Assembly (NCBI GenBank): GCA_019322485.1
Contig: JAHWIK010000015.1
Coordinates: forward strand, 23,216 to 87,215
DNA from: Candidatus Woesearchaeota archaeon
Lineage (GTDB): Archaea > Nanobdellota > Nanobdellia > Woesearchaeales > JAHWIC01
DNA length: 64,000 nucleotides
Direction: 5' to 3'
The stretch's first letter is position 1; the number at the start of each line of letters is the position of its first letter. The notes beneath the pieces were generated by a model, which ran no database searches, was not told the origin of the DNA, and saw only the letters and a list, made by a program, of their open reading frames with translations. A program made the translations under genes and the position numbers. Positions 1,409-36,923 of the stretch are shown here, one piece after another.

Positions 1409-2369
1409 TGTATTCCGTCGGGCTTTTGAGGTATTTAGCAGAAGGCTTTAACTCAATGCGATGGCTCAAGACAGAGACAACAGCCTCGGCTATATCTTCA
1501 AAATCAATTTTTTGCCTGCCTTTTAATTTTGCATTAGCTTGTGCTCTTTCATACAAGCCAATAGAAGCTCTAACACTAGGCTTTTTGCTTAGTTTGCTGT
1601 CTTCCCTTAATAACCTTACAAAGTAGATTGCTAGGTTTAGTAAATTATCTGCAAATTCAACATCAATTTTCTTTCCTTTTTGTTTTACTATCCCTGTTTC
1701 AATCTCTATGCTTTCTGGGTAAGCCATATATAAAACATCAAACCTGTCAATGAAAACATCTGATATGCGTTCTGTTGATGTGTCCTCTGGATTCATTGTT
1801 GCTATTAGTATGAAATTAGCAGGGATATCAACGTCATAGCTGCTTATGGTTGCTTTTCCTTCCTGCAGAACTTGCAGCAAGGCATTCTGCAGTTTCTCAG
1901 GGCACCTGTTGACTTCATCAAAGAACAAGATGCCATTATTTGCTTTGAATATCTTTCCTGGTGTAAAGGCCTCCATGCTTAAAGGGCCGGATTTTAATGC
2001 CTTTACAGGGTCAATGTCTCCAAGTAAATCCTCAACAGTTAAATCAGGACTTCCCTGGATTCTTATGAATCTTTCAACTCCTTTTACTTTCTTTGATTTT
2101 AGCTGTTTATTTGATTTACAAGAAGGGCAAACAGGATTCTTTGGGTCACAGTGGAACTCACAGCCATCAACAACATCAATCTCTGGCAGTAGTTCTGCAA
2201 CATTCTTTGCTAAGGTAGTCTTTCCAATACCGGGCGGCCCAACAATAATGATATGCCTTCCCATCAATAGGGCTGATTTTAGGCCGTGTTTTACCTTATC
2301 CTGCCCAAGAATATCTATAAATGGGTCTTTTTCCTTCAGGAAAATTGCTTCTAATTGTTTTGAAATCAT
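1347..2369 (-). CDS. AAA+ ATPase of the Mg-chelatase ChlI/BchI (MoxR-related) type
   Basis: Walker A 'GPPGIGKTTLA', Walker B 'ILFFDEVNR' and 'ATMNPE' are present. There is a Cys-rich insert 'CEFHCDPKNPVCPSC'. It is paired with a VWA protein. Confidence 0.85.
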   Translation of the reverse strand: MISKQLEAIFLKEKDPFIDILGQDKVKHGLKSALLMGRHIIIVGPPGIGKTTLAKNVAELLPEIDVVDGCEFHCDPKNPVCPSCKSNKQLKSKKVKGVERFIRIQGSPDLTVEDLLGDIDPVKALKSGPLSMEAFTPGKIFKANNGILFFDEVNRCPEKLQNALLQVLQEGKATISSYDVDIPANFILIATMNPEDTSTERISDVFIDRFDVLYMAYPESIEIETGIVKQKGKKIDVEFADNLLNLAIYFVRLLREDSKLSKKPSVRASIGLYERAQANAKLKGRQKIDFEDIAEAVVSVLSHRIELKPSAKYLKSPTEYIAEEFKDFSKSEAVKKGGGL

Positions 2370-20388: not shown

Positions 20389-20739
20389 TTACCTTATCTC
20401 AACTTCACAGGTCTTCTTCGGCTCAACAGAAGCCTTTAGGACTCTTATTGTAAGTCCAAGAGCGCTTCTCTCTGTTCCTGTTGTTATGGTCAGGGTTTCT
20501 TCATCAACCCTTATCCTGCAGAAGGTTTCCTGCGGGCTGACATCAACAAGGATAAGATTTCTGCCTTCATGCTCAGTGATAAATCCTTTTCTAAGCACTA
20601 CAACAGGTTCTGGCTCAGGCTCTTTCTCTACTGCTGCTTCTTCTTCAGCTGCAGCCTCTGGTTCAGGAGCTTCCTCCTCAACAGGCTTAGCGCAGCCAAT
20701 AAGCAAAAACAAGATAAGAACTGAAATTATCTTTTTCAT
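20389..20739 (-). CDS. lipoprotein-like secreted protein, paralog of the upstream gene
   Basis: 'LFLLIGCAKP' lipobox, an acidic linker, and a C-terminal ~70-aa domain shared with 20744..21232. Confidence 0.55.
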   Translation of the reverse strand: MKKIISVLILFLLIGCAKPVEEEAPEPEAAAEEEAAVEKEPEPEPVVVLRKGFITEHEGRNLILVDVSPQETFCRIRVDEETLTITTGTERSALGLTIRVLKASVEPKKTCEVEIR

Positions 20740-20743
20740 ATTA

Positions 20744-21232
20744 TCACCTCAACATAACTCTGCATGTTTCATCAGGGCTAAGGGATGGTTCAAGCACTTC
20801 TATGGTAATGCCCTGGATGCTTCTTGACTTTCCTTTGGTTATCAATATGCTCTCGCCATCTACCCTGAACGAGCAGTATGTTTTTTTTGGGCTTACATGG
20901 CTTAGAATAACATCCTTGCCCCTGAATTGAGTAACAATCCCAATTTCAAGCACTGTGCCAGGTTTTGGCGGCTCAGGCTCTGCCTCAACCTCTTCTATTT
21001 CCTCAACAACAGGCTCAAATTTAGGCTCTTCTTTTTTTCTTTCTGGTATTAACTCCTTGATGTTGCTTCTTACATCTTCGATAGAAATAAACTGCGATAG
21101 GTCTGGTCCAGCTAGAAACAGAAAAGCGAGAAGAAGCACAACCACAATAGCTATGTTAATCATGCGCGCCTTTCTTTGCTTCTCTAATTCATCTATGTCC
21201 TGTATTAACTTGGTTTCTGTTGTTTTCTTCAT
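20744..21232 (-). CDS. single-pass membrane protein, paralog of the downstream gene
   Basis: TM 'INIAIVVVLLLAFLFLAG', an acidic linker, and a C-terminal domain alignable with 20389..20739. Confidence 0.55.
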   Translation of the reverse strand: MKKTTETKLIQDIDELEKQRKARMINIAIVVVLLLAFLFLAGPDLSQFISIEDVRSNIKELIPERKKEEPKFEPVVEEIEEVEAEPEPPKPGTVLEIGIVTQFRGKDVILSHVSPKKTYCSFRVDGESILITKGKSRSIQGITIEVLEPSLSPDETCRVMLR

Positions 21233-24288: not shown

Positions 24289-24484
24289 AGGTGTGAGTTG
24301 GGGATTATCCTATTTAAGTTTTTGCTAAATTTAAAAAAACTTATAAAGAGGTTTGGACTTCCGGCAGTTATATGGCTCCTCTAGAAGTATCGGAAATGGC
24401 CCTGAGAATTGGTGTTCCTGTGTTGATGGGTATTACAGCTAGTGTCTATATTTTTGACTATTTTCTTAGAAGAAGGCAGTATGA

Positions 24485-24838
24485 TTAGTCTTTTGTGATT
24501 AGCTCATCAGCCTCAATATAAGGCTTTGTTCCTGCAAAAGGAATCTCACCATAACGGATTGTCCCCCTTACAACATAATCAACCTCATACTCAAATGTTT
24601 GCTGCGCTACTGCTTTCTTTACATAAAGATAAGGGCCACCGCTTACCTTAGCCCATTCCCGCTTTGCTGTTCCATCTATGATGCCCCTTATCTCAACTTC
24701 CATGCCTTCATACTTTTCAGGATTATCATTTATTGCTTTAATCAATGCACCATCACTTGCTTTTCTTACAATAATCTCATAGCCACCAAACTGGCAGCCG
24801 CATAAAAAAATTAAAAATAAAACTAATAGTTTTTTCAT
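24485..24838 (-). CDS. small lipoprotein-like protein, last gene of the giant-protein operon
   Basis: 'LFLIFLCGCQ' lipobox-like signal. 4-nt overlap with the upstream gene. Confidence 0.5.
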   Translation of the reverse strand: MKKLLVLFLIFLCGCQFGGYEIIVRKASDGALIKAINDNPEKYEGMEVEIRGIIDGTAKREWAKVSGGPYLYVKKAVAQQTFEYEVDYVVRGTIRYGEIPFAGTKPYIEADELITKD

Positions 24839-26016
24839 TTTTTCTTCCTCTTTTTAGGCTTTAGTTTCTTTATCATTATTATCAATGCTGCAGCTATAAT
24901 AGCTAAGGCAACTGCCACATACAACAATGGAGATACCTTTCTTTCTGCTTCGTGCAGCTCTATTGTAAACTCCCTTTCAAAGGTTTTATCTTTATAGTAA
25001 GCCTTTGCCTTTAGTTCATAAGATCCAAGCTCCAGCTCATGCGCTTCCCAATGAAGCCTTACAGAGCTGTTCCTGTTTGGTTCGATATCAATCCTGTTTG
25101 CTTCCATAGCTGCAATTACTGTGCCATTCCTGATAATATCTGCAGTCAGGTTAACATCCTCAAGCTCTTTATTCCAGTTTGACCCTAAGAACATATTTAT
25201 CCTGTTGATTTTATCAACAACAGCAGTTCTTGTTCCTAAGAAAATCAGCACCCCTTCTTCACCAATCCTAAAACTTCCAGTTTCTTCTACTGCTTTTCCG
25301 GAAAACTTAATGATTGATTCTGCATCATACTCACCAGGCTTGAACAGGAACTTCTTTATGGTTAATTGGTTTTCATGACTTTTTCCAGGCTCAATAGTAA
25401 ATGTTGCTTTTGGCAGGGATAGTATCTTCTTCTCTGTATTTCCCAGAATCTTATAACCAAGCACTACATCATGGAATCCATTTACAAGTGCAGCTTTGTA
25501 CAGGCTTGCAACTTTCTCTTTATTCTCATATATGTTAAGGTCATTCTCTATTCCTCCAATTGTTATTGCGCCTTTGTTTTCCATTACTGTTGTAAATTTC
25601 ATAAGATATTGGCTGTCATCAATAACCAAAAGCTCTGTTTTAAGGTATTCCTCAGGATACGGAACAAATAAATTAACCGTATGATGTACTGATGGCTTTG
25701 TTGTTACTGTTCCTGAACCTGCTGGTTCTTCATATACAACTATCTTAGCCTGATGCTCGCCAGGCCCGAAAGGCCCTGATAGGTTAAAGCTGAATTCTTT
25801 TGGGCCTATTACAACCCCTTCACGCGCAATCTCCACGTCAAGCTCACCTTCAACACCAATTGTAATCCTTGTTGGAAGGTTTGATGAAGGTATAACTGTA
25901 AAAACACCTGAATGCTCTTTATTCCCAAAGAAATCTGTCTTTGCGGGCATTGCCCCTAAAGCAAACACAGCGTCTATTGAAAGCACCAATATAATAAATA
26001 AAATCCATTTTTTCAT
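24835..26016 (-). CDS. secreted beta-rich protein with a C-terminal TM anchor and basic tail
   Basis: Signal 'ILFIILVLSIDAVFA'. C-terminal 'LLYVAVALAIIAAALIIMIKKLKPKKRKKK'. 4-nt overlap with the giant gene. Confidence 0.55.
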   Translation of the reverse strand: MKKWILFIILVLSIDAVFALGAMPAKTDFFGNKEHSGVFTVIPSSNLPTRITIGVEGELDVEIAREGVVIGPKEFSFNLSGPFGPGEHQAKIVVYEEPAGSGTVTTKPSVHHTVNLFVPYPEEYLKTELLVIDDSQYLMKFTTVMENKGAITIGGIENDLNIYENKEKVASLYKAALVNGFHDVVLGYKILGNTEKKILSLPKATFTIEPGKSHENQLTIKKFLFKPGEYDAESIIKFSGKAVEETGSFRIGEEGVLIFLGTRTAVVDKINRINMFLGSNWNKELEDVNLTADIIRNGTVIAAMEANRIDIEPNRNSSVRLHWEAHELELGSYELKAKAYYKDKTFEREFTIELHEAERKVSPLLYVAVALAIIAAALIIMIKKLKPKKRKKK

Positions 26017-32000: not shown

Positions 32001-32063
32001 TAAGAGGATAATACAAAGTACTAATTTAATAATTTCAGATATCTTTTTTGTTTTATCTTTCAT
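26013..32063 (-). CDS. giant (2016 aa) surface protein with about 15 Cys/Asp/Asn calcium-binding-like repeats and C-terminal Ig/FN3-like domains
   Basis: N-terminal TM/signal. Repeated 'C-x-D-x-x-DND-x-D...DC-x-D-x-DC' units, e.g. CSDGFDNDQDGELDC, CTDGVDNDLDRY, CIDGKDNDLDFY. The C-terminal 'RPTFTWYNA...YFWRVRAY' is FN3-like. Confidence 0.8.
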   Translation of the reverse strand: MKDKTKKISEIIKLVLCIILLLVSSLNFFIIPDGKELSSITEITGGASSSGTVGFFLLRVADTSNNYRRRVFYEDGSVINLTVIGEGIIENLKANFSCMDSNYADGAETVTNTAGNNYSISYTISQSNTVTNVNNSEDSTCPVGEECHRTCTIPVTSGRRLNGTVQLAFYEGKAALNYAWYVGYVTRAANCAAGVDNSNYFLENNTCSSVFYNPADSSYYYGAKDVDFSIKKKNTPDVVETHCANNADDDGDGKIDCEDSDCASIVYGEYYIVGGSNTNKQGTPAWTCNKTAAGWRDDPPYDPGDLDGSLQCIDGGTCDASCAPNLCTGTASNTAVTYTYKIQPEALFSMRLYQTSQITGYTAYFKVWQFNTSLWQENPGDFWILNYSATTGLSGKTTSANSIIAQSGPNPPSDPTPYTQSTLDNVLKAMMNTTNNFYGMYGLVLNRIFNGSAYDFKFNINISDDGVRDEHDISCADSYDNDLDYTTDCIDIDCDAYIGSTSANPDGTYPLCAYQNESKYAATNNSCTDGFDNDDDGDTDCHYNAGTWDTDCNNTYILNSSWLSYNVGGINGTCELGVETICNDLFDNDRDRAFDCNTTAFFTGGVIQYLSNPTNPRSTYSGGGTYPHGEYDCFNDSNCPINESGITCIDGKDNDLDFYSGLPGAGADCRMVEYDIDCNSSVLPAGTCQLIFETSCSDGFDNDQDGELDCNTTSTGASTTNPNYQYGAGGSNIAHGEYDCQSTCNVTNYWENDGANCSDNKDNDLDYYTITGWTGTQYSATNNQYGGGMDCRYNYDGNHYPDADCDGVDMGPGKCELGHEINCTDGYDNDLDNAYNPGGNRTSASGGYDCDDYDCANDSACPTTETASLCTDGVDNDLDRYVYNITDYLLDSNRVENLSGGIDCIYYAYGLTPNQFWPYAIAYDSYRYDQDCNDTAIGPSGQNCELIIERNCTDVFDNDQDYYISQMQNPGWTNASYQYHFGANTYLQDGDCNDYSCYNNSACPGRENYTCSPTGCNSTQNWCLDSIDNDLDNYLSDGINLSTAAGAGIDCAWNNYDSDCNNTYINDSGNIGLCTIRWEYNCSDGVDNDQDLGTYYVGESGSAHAGANTGEDCDDYNCYAVQESGLYVCTDDGSGLSIVEQTCNDTLDNDLDAYTWNGTEYETNDASGTDCGDPDCNGLLGPGDILCALFEEMYFDPFDDTLCGDYNSSGTTAYSMDNDGDNLANCYDTGCYHQGLCRVCPPEENVTLDSCMDGLNNEYEYQDEYISKTNYDPNEINASLNDGVYDCRDSDCDGIVGVWSTSQGICNSASAGTGYRTTESACTDSYDNDFDNSVDCEDSDCSSGASCLAPYTNSLAACTLKCSDAAAVSYIGGEPPDYSVNTNWGGGTPDLTYTEYHWRGKNLTFTFTDSATNVNGKTIQIYLGSASATYVPLDYEMNASNSGIYGTDSGNFNVQYSAQSGYHYQAVLIEYSGAYPNQILNLTFWITVPDNDTIVQNSSFSYYVSTSIGGVEQNADVTQYILETEPPQAPVFVKTTPADDDYTTSRLRMIKTDNTVTRLSASDTVYVRVNATDSGTWNSGVELCQFNDGTGWVNETSAYDCRYALTLSDGLNTIYARAVDGVGNIGPNTSLTIDVRTLPKQTTGFFCIDTNCSTSYPTKDYYVPTETLNVAVNFTSTYGFTANASGCVVYAEKNSPGSRISLGSVPLASTGMCNGTVSLSGLSEGYYTVEVELRDDNDTRTVSGELPWSNGNSKENIWVCDYTQTYNGYTCKDACEREEANRPSKVILKSPESGNTTTELRPTFTWYNATYNGSTTAKYEIEIDDSPIFTSLDYSRGNLSEGSNNETSHTLISDLELDKTYFWRVRAYHSIISGEWSDVWNFTLSSYIAINLTRDVVDFGVVIPGFSESTEDDSPLPLLLENVGNLIVNISINATDLFETVPNPNESYQFAIGVNESGSFTSATTTLTPMPSNSTPAIYNLNWEDASDTAEIDLNATVPLLEPSGQKNSTILVRTT

Positions 32064-32212
32064 TATTCTATTAACACCACTTTTACTTTTTTGTTAGCCC
32101 AGTGTTTAGGAACGTAGATTTGAGCACCGTTGCCGCTGTGTTTTGCGGTCTTCTCAATAACCTCATAACCTTCCATTTCCATTTGAATCGGCTTTCTCTT
32201 TAGGCGTTTCAT
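32063..32212 (-). CDS. 49-aa AbrB/SpoVT-like (DUF2080-like) mini-protein, copy 1
   Basis: My own translation, below the ORF-track cutoff: MKRLKRKPIQMEMEGYEVIEKTAKHSGNGAQIYVPKHWANKKVKVVLIE. Its stop TAA shares 1 nt with the giant gene's ATG (TAATG). Confidence 0.55.
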   Translation of the reverse strand: MKRLKRKPIQMEMEGYEVIEKTAKHSGNGAQIYVPKHWANKKVKVVLIE

Positions 32213-32352
32213 TATTCTATTAACACCACCTTGACTTTTTTGTTAGCCCAGTGTTTAGGAACGTAGATTTGAGCACCGTTGCCGCTGTGTTTTGCAGTCT
32301 TCTCAACTACCTCATGCCCTTCTATTTTCATCTGAATTGGCTTACTTTTCAT
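32212..32352 (-). CDS. 46-aa AbrB/SpoVT-like (DUF2080-like) mini-protein, copy 2
   Basis: My own translation: MKSKPIQMKIEGHEVVEKTAKHSGNGAQIYVPKHWANKKVKVVLIE. It makes a TAATG junction with copy 1. The C-terminal 30 aa are identical to copy 1. Confidence 0.55.
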   Translation of the reverse strand: MKSKPIQMKIEGHEVVEKTAKHSGNGAQIYVPKHWANKKVKVVLIE

Positions 32353-32385
32353 GTAGCTACAATGTAGCTACATCACTTTATAAAG
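32353..32385 (-). promoter_or_regulatory. TATA box plus a double 8-bp palindrome (GTAGCTAC x2) abutting the mini-gene start codon
   Basis: The minus strand reads CTTTATAAAG-TGAT-GTAGCTAC-ATT-GTAGCTAC-ATG. The TATA box is about 25 nt upstream of the ATG, which implies a leaderless transcript. Confidence 0.45.
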
Positions 32386-32436
32386 ATTTCGGTATTTTAG
32401 AAGATATTTTGAGAAAGAACGTCAGAAAGAAACTAT

Positions 32437-32715
32437 TTACTGAATATCCTCAATCCTAATTATATGATATCCAAACTGAGTCTTTACGGGGCCGACAATG
32501 TCTCCTTTCTTTGCATTGAAGCAGGCATTCTCAAACTCTTTTGCCATTTGACCTCTTTTAAACCATCCAAGATTTCCTCCCTTTTTTCTTGAAGGGCACA
32601 TTGATTTCTCTTTAGCAACCTCTGCAAAGTCCTTTCCATGAGTCACATCATAAGAAACAACAAGAGCTTCCTGCTCTGTTTTAACTAAGATATGCGATGC
32701 ATTGACTTTTTTCAT
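32437..32715 (-). CDS. parvulin-type peptidyl-prolyl cis-trans isomerase
   Basis: 'ASHILVKTEQEA', 'GGNLGWFKRGQMAKEFE' and 'GPVKTQFGYHII'. Confidence 0.85.
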   Translation of the reverse strand: MKKVNASHILVKTEQEALVVSYDVTHGKDFAEVAKEKSMCPSRKKGGNLGWFKRGQMAKEFENACFNAKKGDIVGPVKTQFGYHIIRIEDIQ

Positions 32716-33996: not shown

Positions 33997-35889
33997 ATGG
34001 TTAAAGAGGAGTTAGATAGAAGTCACTTTCTTGATTTAGTCAGTAGTCCGAAGGATTTGAGGCTGTTGAATAAGCAGCAGTTAGATATGCTTGCTGAGGA
34101 ATTAAGAAGGCTAATAATTGAAACTGTAAGCAAGACAGGCGGCCACTTAGCGTCCAGCCTTGGTGTTATTGAATTAACTATTGCTTTGCATTATGTTTTT
34201 GACTCACCAAATGACAAGATAGTATGGGATGTTGGACATCAGGCTTATGCACATAAGCTGTTAACAGGAAGAAAAAATAAGTTCCATACCTTAAGGCAGC
34301 ACAAGGGCATAGCTGGTTTTCCAAAATCAAAGGAGAGCCCTCACGATGCCTTTGATACTGGACACAGCTCAACAGCAATATCAGCAGCTTTAGGAATAGC
34401 AGCTGCTCGCGATTTAAAGCATGAAAAAAACAAGGTGATAGCTGTTATTGGAGACGGAGCTTTAACTGGCGGAATGTCTTTTGAAGCCTTAAATCATGCT
34501 GGCTCATTAAAGAAAGACCTCATAGTAATCCTTAATGATAATGAGATGTCAATAAGCAAGAATGTAGGTGCTTTATCCTCTTATCTTTCAAAGCTGGTAT
34601 CAAAGCCTGGTTATGTCGACAGAAGAAAGAAAGTAGAAAGGATTTTAAGGGGGATACCTGGCCTGAGAAGGCAGGCTGCTAAGGTTTTTGGAATCGAGGA
34701 TACAATAAGGGCTTTAGCAGCTACAACTCCTGGCCTGATATTCAGGGAGCTTGGTTTTAGGTATTTTGGACCTGTTGATGGCCATAATATCGAGCAGATG
34801 ATAAAAACATTAGAGAACATAGAACAGCTTAAAGGTCCTATATTGCTTCATGTCATAACAAAAAAAGGGAAAGGCTATAGCTATGCAGAAGCTGACAGGA
34901 CAAGGTTTCATGGCATTGCGCCATTCAACATAGAGAATGGTGAAAAGAAGCACAAGAGCAGCGTTACATACACAACAGCATTCTCAAGATGTTTGACAAA
35001 GCTTGCAAAGCAGGACAAAAGGGTAGTTGCAATAACAGCAGCAATGAAGCCTGGAACAGGATTAGACCAGTTTGCAGGAATGTTTCCAGACAGGTTATTT
35101 GACGTCGGCATAGCAGAGCAGCATGCAGTTACATTTGCAGCTGGCTTGGCTAAGAACGGCTATAAGCCGGTATGCGCGATTTATTCTACTTTCCTGCAAA
35201 GGGCTTATGACCAGATTGTGCACGATGTTTGTTTGCAGAACCTGCCTGTTGTCTTTGCAATTGATAGAGCTGGCTTGGTCGGAGAGGACGGACCAACACA
35301 TCATGGAAGTTTTGATTTATCTTATCTGAGGCATATACCAAACATGACTGTAATGGCTCCAAAGGACGAGAATGAACTGGGGCATATGCTAAAAACAGCT
35401 TTAGAGATTGACGGGCCGGTTGCAGTAAGATACCCAAGAGGTACGGGCTTGGGGGTTGCAATACAGAACCCATACCACCCAATAGAATTAGGAAAAGCAG
35501 AAGTAATGCAGAAAGGAAAAGATTTGGCAATATTAGCAGTTGGTTCTTGCGTTGATATGGCGAATAAGGCTGCTGAGAAACTGGGGAAGAATAAAATAAA
35601 TGCAACCGTTGTTAATGTAAGGTTTGTAAAGCCTCTGGACGAGAAACTAATACTGAACCTAGCAAAGAAACACAGGAAACTGATTACTATAGAGGAGAAT
35701 GCATTAGATGGCGGTTTTGGTTCTGGTGTGCTGGAATTGTTGGAGCAGTATAACACCAAGGCAACGGTAAAAAGAATTGGAATACCTGATAAATTTGTAG
35801 AGCACGGTTCAATGTCAATCTTAAGAGAAAAAATTGGATTAACTGAGGATAATATAGTGAAGGAAGCGAAGTCGTTGATGGCAAAATGA
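33997..35889 (+). CDS. dxs: 1-deoxy-D-xylulose-5-phosphate synthase
   Basis: 'GGHLASSLGVIELTIALHYVF', 'DVGHQAYAHKLLTGR', 'GDGALTGGMSFEALNHAG' and 'DGPTHHG'. Confidence 0.95.
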   Translation: MVKEELDRSHFLDLVSSPKDLRLLNKQQLDMLAEELRRLIIETVSKTGGHLASSLGVIELTIALHYVFDSPNDKIVWDVGHQAYAHKLLTGRKNKFHTLRQHKGIAGFPKSKESPHDAFDTGHSSTAISAALGIAAARDLKHEKNKVIAVIGDGALTGGMSFEALNHAGSLKKDLIVILNDNEMSISKNVGALSSYLSKLVSKPGYVDRRKKVERILRGIPGLRRQAAKVFGIEDTIRALAATTPGLIFRELGFRYFGPVDGHNIEQMIKTLENIEQLKGPILLHVITKKGKGYSYAEADRTRFHGIAPFNIENGEKKHKSSVTYTTAFSRCLTKLAKQDKRVVAITAAMKPGTGLDQFAGMFPDRLFDVGIAEQHAVTFAAGLAKNGYKPVCAIYSTFLQRAYDQIVHDVCLQNLPVVFAIDRAGLVGEDGPTHHGSFDLSYLRHIPNMTVMAPKDENELGHMLKTALEIDGPVAVRYPRGTGLGVAIQNPYHPIELGKAEVMQKGKDLAILAVGSCVDMANKAAEKLGKNKINATVVNVRFVKPLDEKLILNLAKKHRKLITIEENALDGGFGSGVLELLEQYNTKATVKRIGIPDKFVEHGSMSILREKIGLTEDNIVKEAKSLMAK

Positions 35890-36923
35890 GAAGCAAAACA
35901 AAAGAAATCAGGATTGGAAAACTGAAGATTGGCGGAGATAATCCTATTGCAATACAGTCAATGACTAATACTGATACAAAAGACGAGGAAGCAACAATAA
36001 AACAGATTCATGAGCTAGAGGAGAATGGCTGCGAGATAGTTAGGGTTTCTGTTCCTGACAAGGAATCGTTGCTTTCATTAAGAGCAATAAAAGAAAACAT
36101 AAGCATTCCATTGGTTGCTGATATTCATTTTGACCATAAATTAGCTGTAGAAGCTGCAAGGATTGCAGACAAGATAAGGATTAACCCAGGAAATATTGGG
36201 AAAGAGAACCTGAAAGAGGTTGTTGATGCTGTTATGGATTCAAATATTCCGATGAGGGTGGGGATTAACCTAGGTTCTTTGGAAAAAGACATTGAGAAGA
36301 AGTTTGGCCTTACTGCATTAGGTATGGTTGAGAGCGCAATGAGGTCTGTGAAAGAGATAGAAAGGCTTGGCTTCTACAATATGGTTATTTCATTAAAGGC
36401 TTCTGATGTGTTAAAGACAATAGAAGCTTACAGATTGTTTTCACAGAGGTCACAATACCCTTTACACGTCGGTATAACCGAGTCTGGGAGCAGTTTTACA
36501 GGAACTGTTAATTCATCAGTTGGAATTGGAGCTTTATTATTGCAGGGAATTGGAGATACAATCCGCGTTTCATTATCAGCTGAGCCTGTTGAAGAGGTTA
36601 AAGTTGGCTGGCAGATTCTGAAAGCACTTAGGCTTAGGAAGAGGGGGATTGACATAACAAGCTGCCCAACGTGCGCAAGAAAAGGCATAGATGTTATCAA
36701 TATTGTCAAGGAGCTTGAGCAAAGAACCTCAAAAATGAACAAGCCTTTGCATATTGCAGTTATGGGCTGCGGTGTTAATGGTCCAGGAGAAGCTAAAGAA
36801 GCTGATATTGGTGTTGTCGGCGGAAAAGGAAATGTTTTGCTTTACAAGAATGGAATGATGGTCGGCAATATTGAGGGAGATGTTCTTGAAAGGTTGATGA
36901 AGGAGATAGAGAATTCAAAATGA
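35886..36923 (+). CDS. ispG: 4-hydroxy-3-methylbut-2-en-1-yl diphosphate synthase
   Basis: 'IGGDNPIAIQSMTNT', 'RINPGNIG', 'SCPTCAR' and 'AVMGCGVNGPGEA'. ATGA overlap with dxs. Confidence 0.9.
   Translation: MRSKTKEIRIGKLKIGGDNPIAIQSMTNTDTKDEEATIKQIHELEENGCEIVRVSVPDKESLLSLRAIKENISIPLVADIHFDHKLAVEAARIADKIRINPGNIGKENLKEVVDAVMDSNIPMRVGINLGSLEKDIEKKFGLTALGMVESAMRSVKEIERLGFYNMVISLKASDVLKTIEAYRLFSQRSQYPLHVGITESGSSFTGTVNSSVGIGALLLQGIGDTIRVSLSAEPVEEVKVGWQILKALRLRKRGIDITSCPTCARKGIDVINIVKELEQRTSKMNKPLHIAVMGCGVNGPGEAKEADIGVVGGKGNVLLYKNGMMVGNIEGDVLERLMKEIENSK

Follow-up and report, generated by a model that had tools for sequence, protein, structure and literature searches.

We analyzed a 64-kb window (64,000 nucleotides, nt; contig JAHWIK010000015.1 of a Candidatus Woesearchaeota archaeon) in which two mini-genes, W1 and W2, head a chain of five genes that includes one for a 2016-amino acid (aa) surface protein. 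The mini-genes encode DUF2080-family proteins and, with the promoter and inverted repeat in front of them, form the 5' module of an IS66-family insertion sequence (IS). The transposase has been lost, and the module is retained under purifying selection at a junction conserved in related genomes. We consider it moderately probable that it is a domesticated control module that autoregulates the surface-protein operon. The features of the locus, from its upstream end, are the following.

32420..32440, minus strand: GTAAATAGTTTCTTTCTGACG, putative remnant of an IS66-type left terminal inverted repeat, proposed from its distance to the start codon and its likeness to IS ends
32385-32392, minus strand: CCGAAATC, resembling a transcription factor B recognition element (BRE), at -40..-33 from the ATG, directly upstream of the TATA box
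32377-32384, minus strand: TTTATAAA, TATA box, at -32..-25 from the A of the ATG
32351-32373, no strand assigned: ATGTAGCTACA-T-TGTAGCTACAT, perfect inverted repeat and putative operator, which follows the TATA box and extends into the start codon
32212..32352, minus strand: W1 (mini-gene 1), 46-aa DUF2080-family protein MKSKPIQMKIEGHEVVEKTAKHSGNGAQIYVPKHWANKKVKVVLIE, matched by NF033496
32063..32212, minus strand: W2 (mini-gene 2), 49-aa DUF2080-family protein MKRLKRKPIQMEMEGYEVIEKTAKHSGNGAQIYVPKHWANKKVKVVLIE, tandem paralogue of W1, matched by NF033496
26013..32063, minus strand: 2016-aa surface protein with signal anchor, repeats, and sequons
24835..26016, minus strand: 393-aa protein with a WxL-interacting-protein host-binding domain (PF11797, E = 2.8e-10) and hydrophobic segments
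24485..24838, minus strand: 117-aa protein with a lipoprotein-like signal, last member of the overlapping chain

All five genes of the chain lie on the minus strand and overlap their neighbors: W1/W2 at 32212 and W2/giant gene at 32063 by one base in TAATG, and the 2016-aa/393-aa (26013-26016) and 393-aa/117-aa genes (24835-24838) by 4 nt in ATGA. A preliminary description of this DNA had proposed 46- and 49-aa open reading frames (ORFs) upstream of the 2016-aa gene, their tandem duplication, a five-gene chain joined by TAATG and ATGA overlaps, and a TATA box about 25 nt upstream of the start, and these held up. Both ORFs are present and under purifying selection (ratio of nonsynonymous to synonymous substitution rates, dN/dS, 0.02-0.06), all the overlaps were found in the sequence, and the TATA box TTTATAAA at -32..-25 is conserved across loci. 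The duplication is a tandem repeat of 143 nt with 91% identity and a period of 149 nt (32058-32200 vs. 32207-32349), and the C-terminal 30 aa of W1 and W2 are identical. The Lys-Val-Val codons AAGGTGGTG (W1, 32221-32229) and AAAGTGGTG (W2, 32072-32080), about 11 nt before the next ATG, are conserved and Shine-Dalgarno-like, and this resemblance may partly explain why the 3' ends of the mini-genes are conserved at the nucleotide level.

One signal anchor, at the N-terminus, is present in the giant protein, together with 13 C-x-[DN]-x-x-D-N-D-x-D repeats and 71 N-x-S/T glycosylation sequons; the Pfam search found no domain in it. The 393-aa protein carries an N-terminal signal sequence and a C-terminal membrane anchor, and the 117-aa protein an N-terminal hydrophobic segment. 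A rotamase gene lies 84 nt upstream of the chain in the same direction. The window encodes an archaeal L10/P0, Hel308, and an ATP-dependent ligase; it is therefore archaeal, and an archaeal reading of the promoter is apt.

The closest homologues of the mini-proteins (77-93% identity) are encoded directly upstream of IS66 transposases, with overlaps of 1-4 nt. A gene of about 45 aa overlaps the start of a 434-474-aa IS66-family transposase in L001, L002-L006, L010, and L038-L047, which were retrieved by protein identity, and the L001 transposase passes NF033517 (191 bits, cut-off 180). L001 is a complete IS of about 1.57 kb that ends in GTAATCGTTTAGC...GCTAAACGATTAC (GTAA...TTAC terminal repeats) and is flanked by an 8-bp target duplication, TATTTTTT. 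Directly before the mini-gene, the IS copies share with the window both the GAAATCTTTA(T/A)A box and the inverted repeat. An exact 22-mer occurred in 12 metagenome contigs, all 12 with the mini-gene and an IS66 transposase, and in six genome contigs among the GTDB representative genomes, five of them IS copies with transposase. Overall, about 17 distinct IS loci were examined, and a transposase followed the mini-gene in every one. IS-borne copies of the mini-gene are far more numerous than host-linked ones.

The window module shares 77-83% nt identity with these IS66-type elements; the homology runs from about 60 nt upstream of the ATG through the last mini-gene codon and then ends. W1 is identical at 43 of 46 positions to the IS-borne protein of L014, so the co-option is recent relative to the diversity of the ISs. 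The window locus is thus like the IS66-borne DUF2080 genes (NF033496/PF09853) in family, with up to 93% identity, and in promoter, repeat, and stop/start overlap. It differs in that transposase, right end, and target duplication are missing, the next gene encodes the 2016-aa surface protein, and the mini-gene is duplicated. In the 64-kb window, tblastn found no IS66 transposase (best E-value 0.43), so that the transposase-associated context of the family is lacking here. At the left, the G of the putative remnant GTAAATAGTTTCTTTCTGACG lies 88 nt from the ATG, and the IS terminus lies at 88 nt in L010 and 87 nt in L001; the remnant has GTAA and CTTTCTGA in common with GTAATTATTTAGCTTTCTGAAG.

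Several observations accompany these elements. The rotamase stop codon TAA (32437-32440, minus strand) lies inside the putative IS left terminus (GTAA...), and the insertion appears to have provided the last part of the rotamase frame or substituted for it; the rotamase C-terminus differs in L009 (EDCK vs. EDIQ before the stop). The giant gene and the L010 transposase have a common start (ATGAAAGATAAA, MKDK), which we considered as a deletion breakpoint and rejected as too short and AT-rich to count as evidence. A solo copy in L007 (10001-10120) and L008 (1586-1705) has a 39-aa DUF2080 ORF, two C>T changes in the repeat, and no transposase; by eye, there are apparent short remnants of the transposase 5' end between rpS19e and rpoK. 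This module is decaying rather than co-opted. The 2089-bp contig L014 carries two copies of the 22-nt motif 1572 nt apart (21-42 and 1593-1614, minus strand); it may hold two ISs in tandem, or the assembly may have picked up a circular or junction form of the element. L023 and L024 are short IS-only contigs with the archaeal IS66/DUF2080 element that are binned as bacterial ("Vicingus sp." and "Omnitrophota bacterium"), probably through binning errors for a repeated element. In three haloarchaeal plasmids (L056-L058; NZ_CP120472.1, NZ_CP007059.1, and NZ_CP101157.1), DUF2080 stands directly upstream of genes for a 580-aa transposase and a TnpB RNA-guided endonuclease, and no inverted repeat abuts the ATG. 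DUF2080 is therefore a modular "head gene" for several unrelated types of mobile element.

The junction between module and giant gene is conserved. In L009, the rotamase gene is followed by the repeat, two mini-genes (the second of 49 aa), and the giant ORF, with 81% nt identity to the window. L051 (with L052-L054) has the rotamase gene, the repeat, and a single 47-aa mini-gene that is joined through ATGA to the same giant ORF (78% aa identity). L009 and L051-L054, which were assembled independently, thus share the order of the junction with the window (78-84% nt identity), and this rules out an assembly chimera at a repeated IS. The N-terminus of the giant protein is conserved in L009 and L051. 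The linkage of mini-gene and giant gene, for which the preliminary description had suggested a survey of relatives, is therefore kept in both, and the number of mini-genes is two in the window, two in L009, and one in L051. The substitution rates (nonsynonymous, dN; synonymous, dS) were as follows.

W1 and its L009 orthologue: dN 0.027, dS 0.47, dN/dS about 0.06
W2 and its L009 orthologue: dN 0.071, dS 1.19, dN/dS about 0.06
W1 and the L051 mini-gene: dN 0.018, dS 0.82, dN/dS about 0.02
Rotamase gene, window and L009: dN 0.041, dS 0.375, dN/dS 0.11
Giant gene N-terminus, window and L009/L051: dN 0.148/0.158, dS 1.03/1.15, dN/dS 0.14

Judged from these alignments, the mini-genes are under strong purifying selection. 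At least three lineages carry the locus in fixed, syntenic form. The L009 orthologue of W2 (P0002) is 88% identical to it. Between mini-gene paralogues, dS was 0.36-0.49 within a genome versus 1.4-1.6 across genomes, with synonymous variants in common, and the 3' ends (GTCAAGGTG vs. GTAAAAGTG) are conserved orthologously. The duplication therefore predates the split of the window and L009 lineages, and the center of the mini-genes has been homogenized by gene conversion.

DUF2080 genes recur before other genes for membrane-anchored or secreted proteins, at three loci of which two keep the inverted repeat. L029, from a DPANN genome with 54% GC, has the exact repeat, a gene for a 58-aa DUF2080 protein that overlaps one for a 653-aa CARDB protein, a gene for a 424-aa protein, and, just downstream, a gene for 8251 aa. 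L030-L037 have the repeat with one change in the spacer, a DUF2080 gene, and a gene for a 507-aa membrane M15 peptidase; this locus is fixed, was seen in many samples, and has a divergently oriented gene upstream. L055 encodes a fused tandem DUF2080 (P0101, 104 aa) that overlaps the gene of a signal-anchored protein of at least 1704 aa, and its repeat is degenerate. BLASTP found no similarity between the downstream proteins of L029, L030-L037, and L055 and those of the window operon; all of them have N-terminal or internal hydrophobic anchors.

The promoter and the repeat are conserved along with the genes. The block -51..-1 is identical at 47 of 51 positions in L009 and 46 of 51 in L051, and identity further upstream is about 42%. 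The promoter block AAATCTTTA is invariant across eight aligned loci, and the spacing of TATA box, 5 nt, 19-nt repeat core, and ATG is the same in L029. The core GTAGCTAC-ATT-GTAGCTAC (32353-32371) was matched in none of 100 dinucleotide-preserving shuffles of the window, and the right arm of the full repeat takes in the A and T of the W1 start codon. The repeat is identical before the DUF2080 genes of L001, L003, L010, L009, and L051, loci that were found by protein similarity; variants are the spacer change in L030 and a compensatory change in L038. In the L038 IS family it reads TGTAGTTACA-A-TGTAACTACA: changes in the two arms compensate each other (C>T/G>A) and leave the large inverted repeat intact, and both local 8-bp palindromes and an 11-nt direct repeat are lost. 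The conserved unit is therefore one inverted repeat. The double palindrome of the preliminary description is present in the window sequence, but L038 shows it to be a special case of this single repeat. With a TATA box and BRE-like element conserved across loci, the geometry fits a leaderless start, the position of the transcription start being predicted from it. Additional half-sites, as a regulon would have, were not found in the window beyond chance expectation. A scan of the window for sigma-70 promoters and intrinsic terminators gave fewer promoter-like sites than the shuffles, with models that are unsuited to an archaeon.

Both mini-proteins match NCBIfam NF033496 (DUF2080_fam_acc) over the full 34-position model, with 57 bits for W1 and 58 bits for W2 (cut-off 22). 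With Pfam PF09853 they score 14.5 and 16.4 bits, below the gathering threshold of 21.5; 83 of 92 relatives match this model at E <= 10, and diverse ones pass it (23-40 bits). The PF09853 model is biased towards other DUF2080 subfamilies. The DUF2080 assignment of the preliminary description is therefore upheld by NF033496, and in PF09853 by the relatives but not by W1 and W2 themselves. The family is widespread, with 919 members in a profile search, and the closest relatives come from metagenome-assembled genomes of DPANN ("Nanoarchaeota," Woesearchaeota). We found no functional study of DUF2080 in the searchable literature; annotation calls it only "transposase-associated." Three IMG/VR contigs, putatively of archaeal viruses (L048-L050), encode longer proteins (195-241 aa) that carry DUF2080-like domains C-terminally, which shows that the domain also occurs outside mini-proteins. 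These three distant domains were the result of the viral-contig scan; all lack the repeat and give no information on the operator. Methanoculleus viruses L4768 and Blf4 (H6/H7) encode, at 24410-24544, a 45-aa hypothetical protein 40% identical to the consensus-like DUF2080 protein P0081.

Regulators and antitoxins of the AbrB/MazE/SpoVT type (PF04014) are small and dimeric, and they autoregulate their operons through sites that overlap the promoter. The mini-proteins resemble them in size, predicted all-beta structure, position as first gene of the operon, a symmetric site at the promoter, and the existence of a tandem or fused two-domain version; a G-N-S/G-x-x-[IV]-Y-V-P-K-x-W motif aligns with the first beta-hairpin of that family. 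They differ in that W1 and W2 have no PF04014 match at E <= 10, are only about 45 aa long with a very short helix, and have no toxin partner, and in that their fold is predicted. Among relatives, PF04014 matched below threshold in 11 of 92 and 7 of 10 (12.9-22.5 bits; gathering score 24.7), always in the same register, with DUF2080 residues 20-37 or so on profile positions 2-18. The AlphaFold2 model of the monomer is confident (pLDDT, the predicted local distance difference test score, 87) and all-beta. A sequence search of the PDB with the family profile returned chance matches only. The relationship to AbrB/MazE is plausible, not established.

The history and mechanism that we propose are as follows. 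An IS66-type element of DPANN archaea would have inserted just after the rotamase gene and then lost its transposase and right end, so that its module became fused by a stop/start overlap to the 2016-aa gene; in some lineages, the mini-gene would then have been duplicated in tandem. Transcription would begin at or next to the first ATG (position 32352) and give a leaderless mRNA. The DUF2080 proteins are predicted to form a small beta-barrel dimer, either a W1/W2 heterodimer or a homodimer. Bound to TGTAGCTACA, the symmetric half-sites located after the TATA box and before the start of transcription, this dimer would repress its own promoter. The mini-proteins probably form a small dimeric, DNA-binding autorepressor on an operator that overlaps a leaderless start. 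Repression would set the output of the whole operon, that is, the two mini-genes, the giant gene, the WxLIP-like 393-aa gene, and the lipoprotein-like 117-aa gene, with the downstream genes translated by termination-reinitiation at the TAATG and ATGA overlaps. In the IS, the same module would keep the transposase low. The autoregulation suggested in the preliminary description is a reasonable candidate role.

A number of points weigh against this proposal. DNA binding, repression, the transcription start, and dimerization are all properties that we infer from sequence. At the right, the window has no end repeat except two chance-level matches with three mismatches far from the locus, and no target duplication could be identified. 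The left-end sequence at 32420..32440 aligned locally with two of five IS ends at p = 0.016-0.024 and nonsignificantly with the other three, and is suggestive only as a remnant. With a weak left end and neither right end nor duplication, the history of insertion and deletion is therefore reconstructed, not proven. On the protein side, hhalign against one MazE protein and a three-sequence AbrB/MazE alignment was not significant (E = 0.2-0.44), with the register of the PF04014 matches (NGAQIYVPKH vs. DKGQIAIPQN, E = 0.2). A fold search of the PDB with the monomer gave no significant neighbor. The pseudo-dimer model is of moderate confidence (pLDDT 74), and its fold matches are generic six-stranded barrels. 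The hits of the fold searches include PG0164, PhS018, VAT-N/DPBB, ribosomal L3, and ATPase N-terminal barrels, an unspecific set that we take to be grouped with the swapped-hairpin AbrB fold as "cradle-loop barrels." The AbrB/SpoVT fold put forward in the preliminary description thus draws weak support from the subthreshold PF04014 matches of the relatives, and none from W1, W2, or hhalign. A symmetric dimer site with the half-site TGTAG[C/T]TACA would explain the compensatory change in L038, but a hairpin of RNA or DNA would explain it just as well. Exact-motif search supplied most of the motif-bearing loci, so the apparent invariance of the motif is inflated. Finally, L055 and the haloarchaeal plasmids have DUF2080 without the intact repeat, so binding to this site cannot be a general property of the family.

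Two alternatives keep some weight, and we regard each as unlikely. One is that the IS remnant donates a strong promoter and translational coupling, the mini-ORFs being leader ORFs whose products do not regulate. IS insertions that activate or regulate adjacent genes are an established phenomenon, and here, too, the end of a mobile element supplies the promoter of a host gene: the IS-derived promoter block is conserved, stop/start overlaps link all the downstream genes, and the Shine-Dalgarno-like Lys-Val-Val codons AAGGTGGTG/AAAGTGGTG are well placed about 11 nt before the next ATG. Unlike in such cases, however, an accessory gene and a cis site have been kept under strong purifying selection, several times, always before an envelope-protein gene. 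Selection on the amino acids of the mini-proteins is stronger than on the rotamase or the giant protein; each comparison contains 9-17 synonymous changes. Both copies have stayed intact in two lineages, another giant gene (in L055) has retained a fused tandem version in front of it, and promoter activity alone would not require the repeat.

The other, for which we would also give rather long odds, is that the inverted repeat acts as an RNA hairpin that hides the start codon in transcripts reading in from outside, shielding the IS from external activation, and is absent from the element's own leaderless mRNA. The fold-back inhibition of IS10/IS50 protects the transposase start from read-through transcripts in this way, and in both cases an inverted repeat can sequester the start codon when transcription has begun outside the element. 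The window would have inherited this feature, which would dampen read-through from the rotamase gene, a co-directional neighbor only 84 nt away on the upstream side. Folded as RNA, the repeat gives a stem of 10 bp, which takes in the AU of the AUG, and a loop of 3 nt (-14.7 kcal/mol, z = -3.2); pairing survives the C>T/G>A change in the L038 IS, and the two changes in the decayed L007 copy give G.U pairs. The context differs from IS10/IS50 in being archaeal and leaderless, with the repeat wholly between the TATA box and the ATG, and the repeat is conserved after loss of the transposase and also where no co-directional gene lies upstream. It is retained in L030-L037, whose upstream gene is divergent and where read-through is not expected, which argues for a role at the DNA level. 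Intact arms are identical across loci or symmetrically changed (L038), despite mini-proteins only about 55% identical and a genome of 54% GC, and translation from an internal AUG that lacks a Shine-Dalgarno sequence would be inefficient in any case. Three points favor a DNA-level operator: the divergent neighbor in L030, the GC-rich L029, and the placement of the repeat after the TATA box and before the predicted leaderless start. The two roles of the repeat are not mutually exclusive.

We give little credence to a third explanation, in which DUF2080 acts on a protein, as an antitoxin-like or transposase-modulating factor, and the window copies have been kept to neutralize related IS transposases in trans, as a form of IS immunity, independently of the operon. 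In NetFlax, a DUF2080-type domain figures among the antitoxins that counter nuclease toxins (PMC10440598), CalpT has been described as MazF-like plus DUF2080 (bioRxiv 10.1101/2024.05.08.593097), and the haloarchaeal DUF2080 genes precede several unrelated transposase types, including TnpB. The 64-kb window, however, has no toxin or transposase, and this explanation accounts neither for the four independent host-linked copies, all before envelope proteins, nor for the conserved promoter repeat. The model of the preliminary description, a dedicated AbrB-like pair that arose by tandem duplication in place and is unrelated to mobile elements, is very improbable and, as to origin, largely refuted: the duplication is real, the giant-gene linkage is conserved in relatives, and there are weak AbrB/MazE-like signals, but the whole module (promoter, repeat, and DUF2080 gene) is that of the IS66-family 5' end at 77-83% nt identity, W1 matches an IS-borne protein at 43 of 46 positions, host-linked copies are far fewer than IS-borne ones, a remnant of the left end is probably present, and L051 has a single copy.

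If the autoregulatory module is as we propose, this locus and its relatives give DUF2080 a concrete candidate function, that of a small dimeric repressor on a 23-bp site before a leaderless start. They also present an IS control module kept without its transposase, under strong selection, before very large surface proteins of DPANN archaea. Such proteins are prime candidates for host attachment in DPANN episymbionts, and their regulation is almost unstudied. The DUF2080 family and its link to transposases are already known from annotation. We found no description in the searchable literature of the operator-like repeat, of transposase loss with selected retention of the rest, or of repeated placement before envelope or giant proteins. 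More tentatively, the DUF2080 gene and the repeat may constitute a portable autoregulatory promoter cassette that throttles transposases and has been domesticated repeatedly by DPANN archaea for giant-protein and envelope operons, with cross-talk between ISs and host. The transposases throttled in this way would be of the IS66 type in DPANN and, in haloarchaea, where this repeat is absent, of other types, along with TnpB. IS-borne and host-fixed copies have the same putative operator, so IS copy number could modulate surface-protein expression in trans. Were such cross-talk real, host copies could repress incoming ISs, mobile-element load would feed straight into surface-protein expression, and the mobilome would be tied to the cell surface of episymbiotic archaea.

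Other parts of the window gave a few further observations. Rfam and tRNA scans of all 64 kb returned no match. Bacterial-type genes of the methylerythritol phosphate (MEP) pathway, dxs (882 bits to TIGR00204) and GcpE/IspG, lie at 33997-36923 (plus strand) and are followed by several genes with phosphoenolpyruvate (PEP)-utilizer domains; archaea generally use the mevalonate route, so dxs and IspG are unusual in an archaeal window. The ribosomal L10/P0 homologue has 660 aa in the window (15432-17414, minus strand) and 476 aa in L055 (2736-4166). The NCBIfam models have about 340 aa, and both proteins therefore have a long C-terminal extension. Two adjacent genes (20389-20739 and 20744-21232, minus strand) encode small secreted proteins of 116 and 162 aa with similar C-terminal domains of about 65 residues (VSPQETFCRIRVDEETLTITTG vs. 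VSPKKTYCSFRVDGESILITKG), which is another local tandem duplication.

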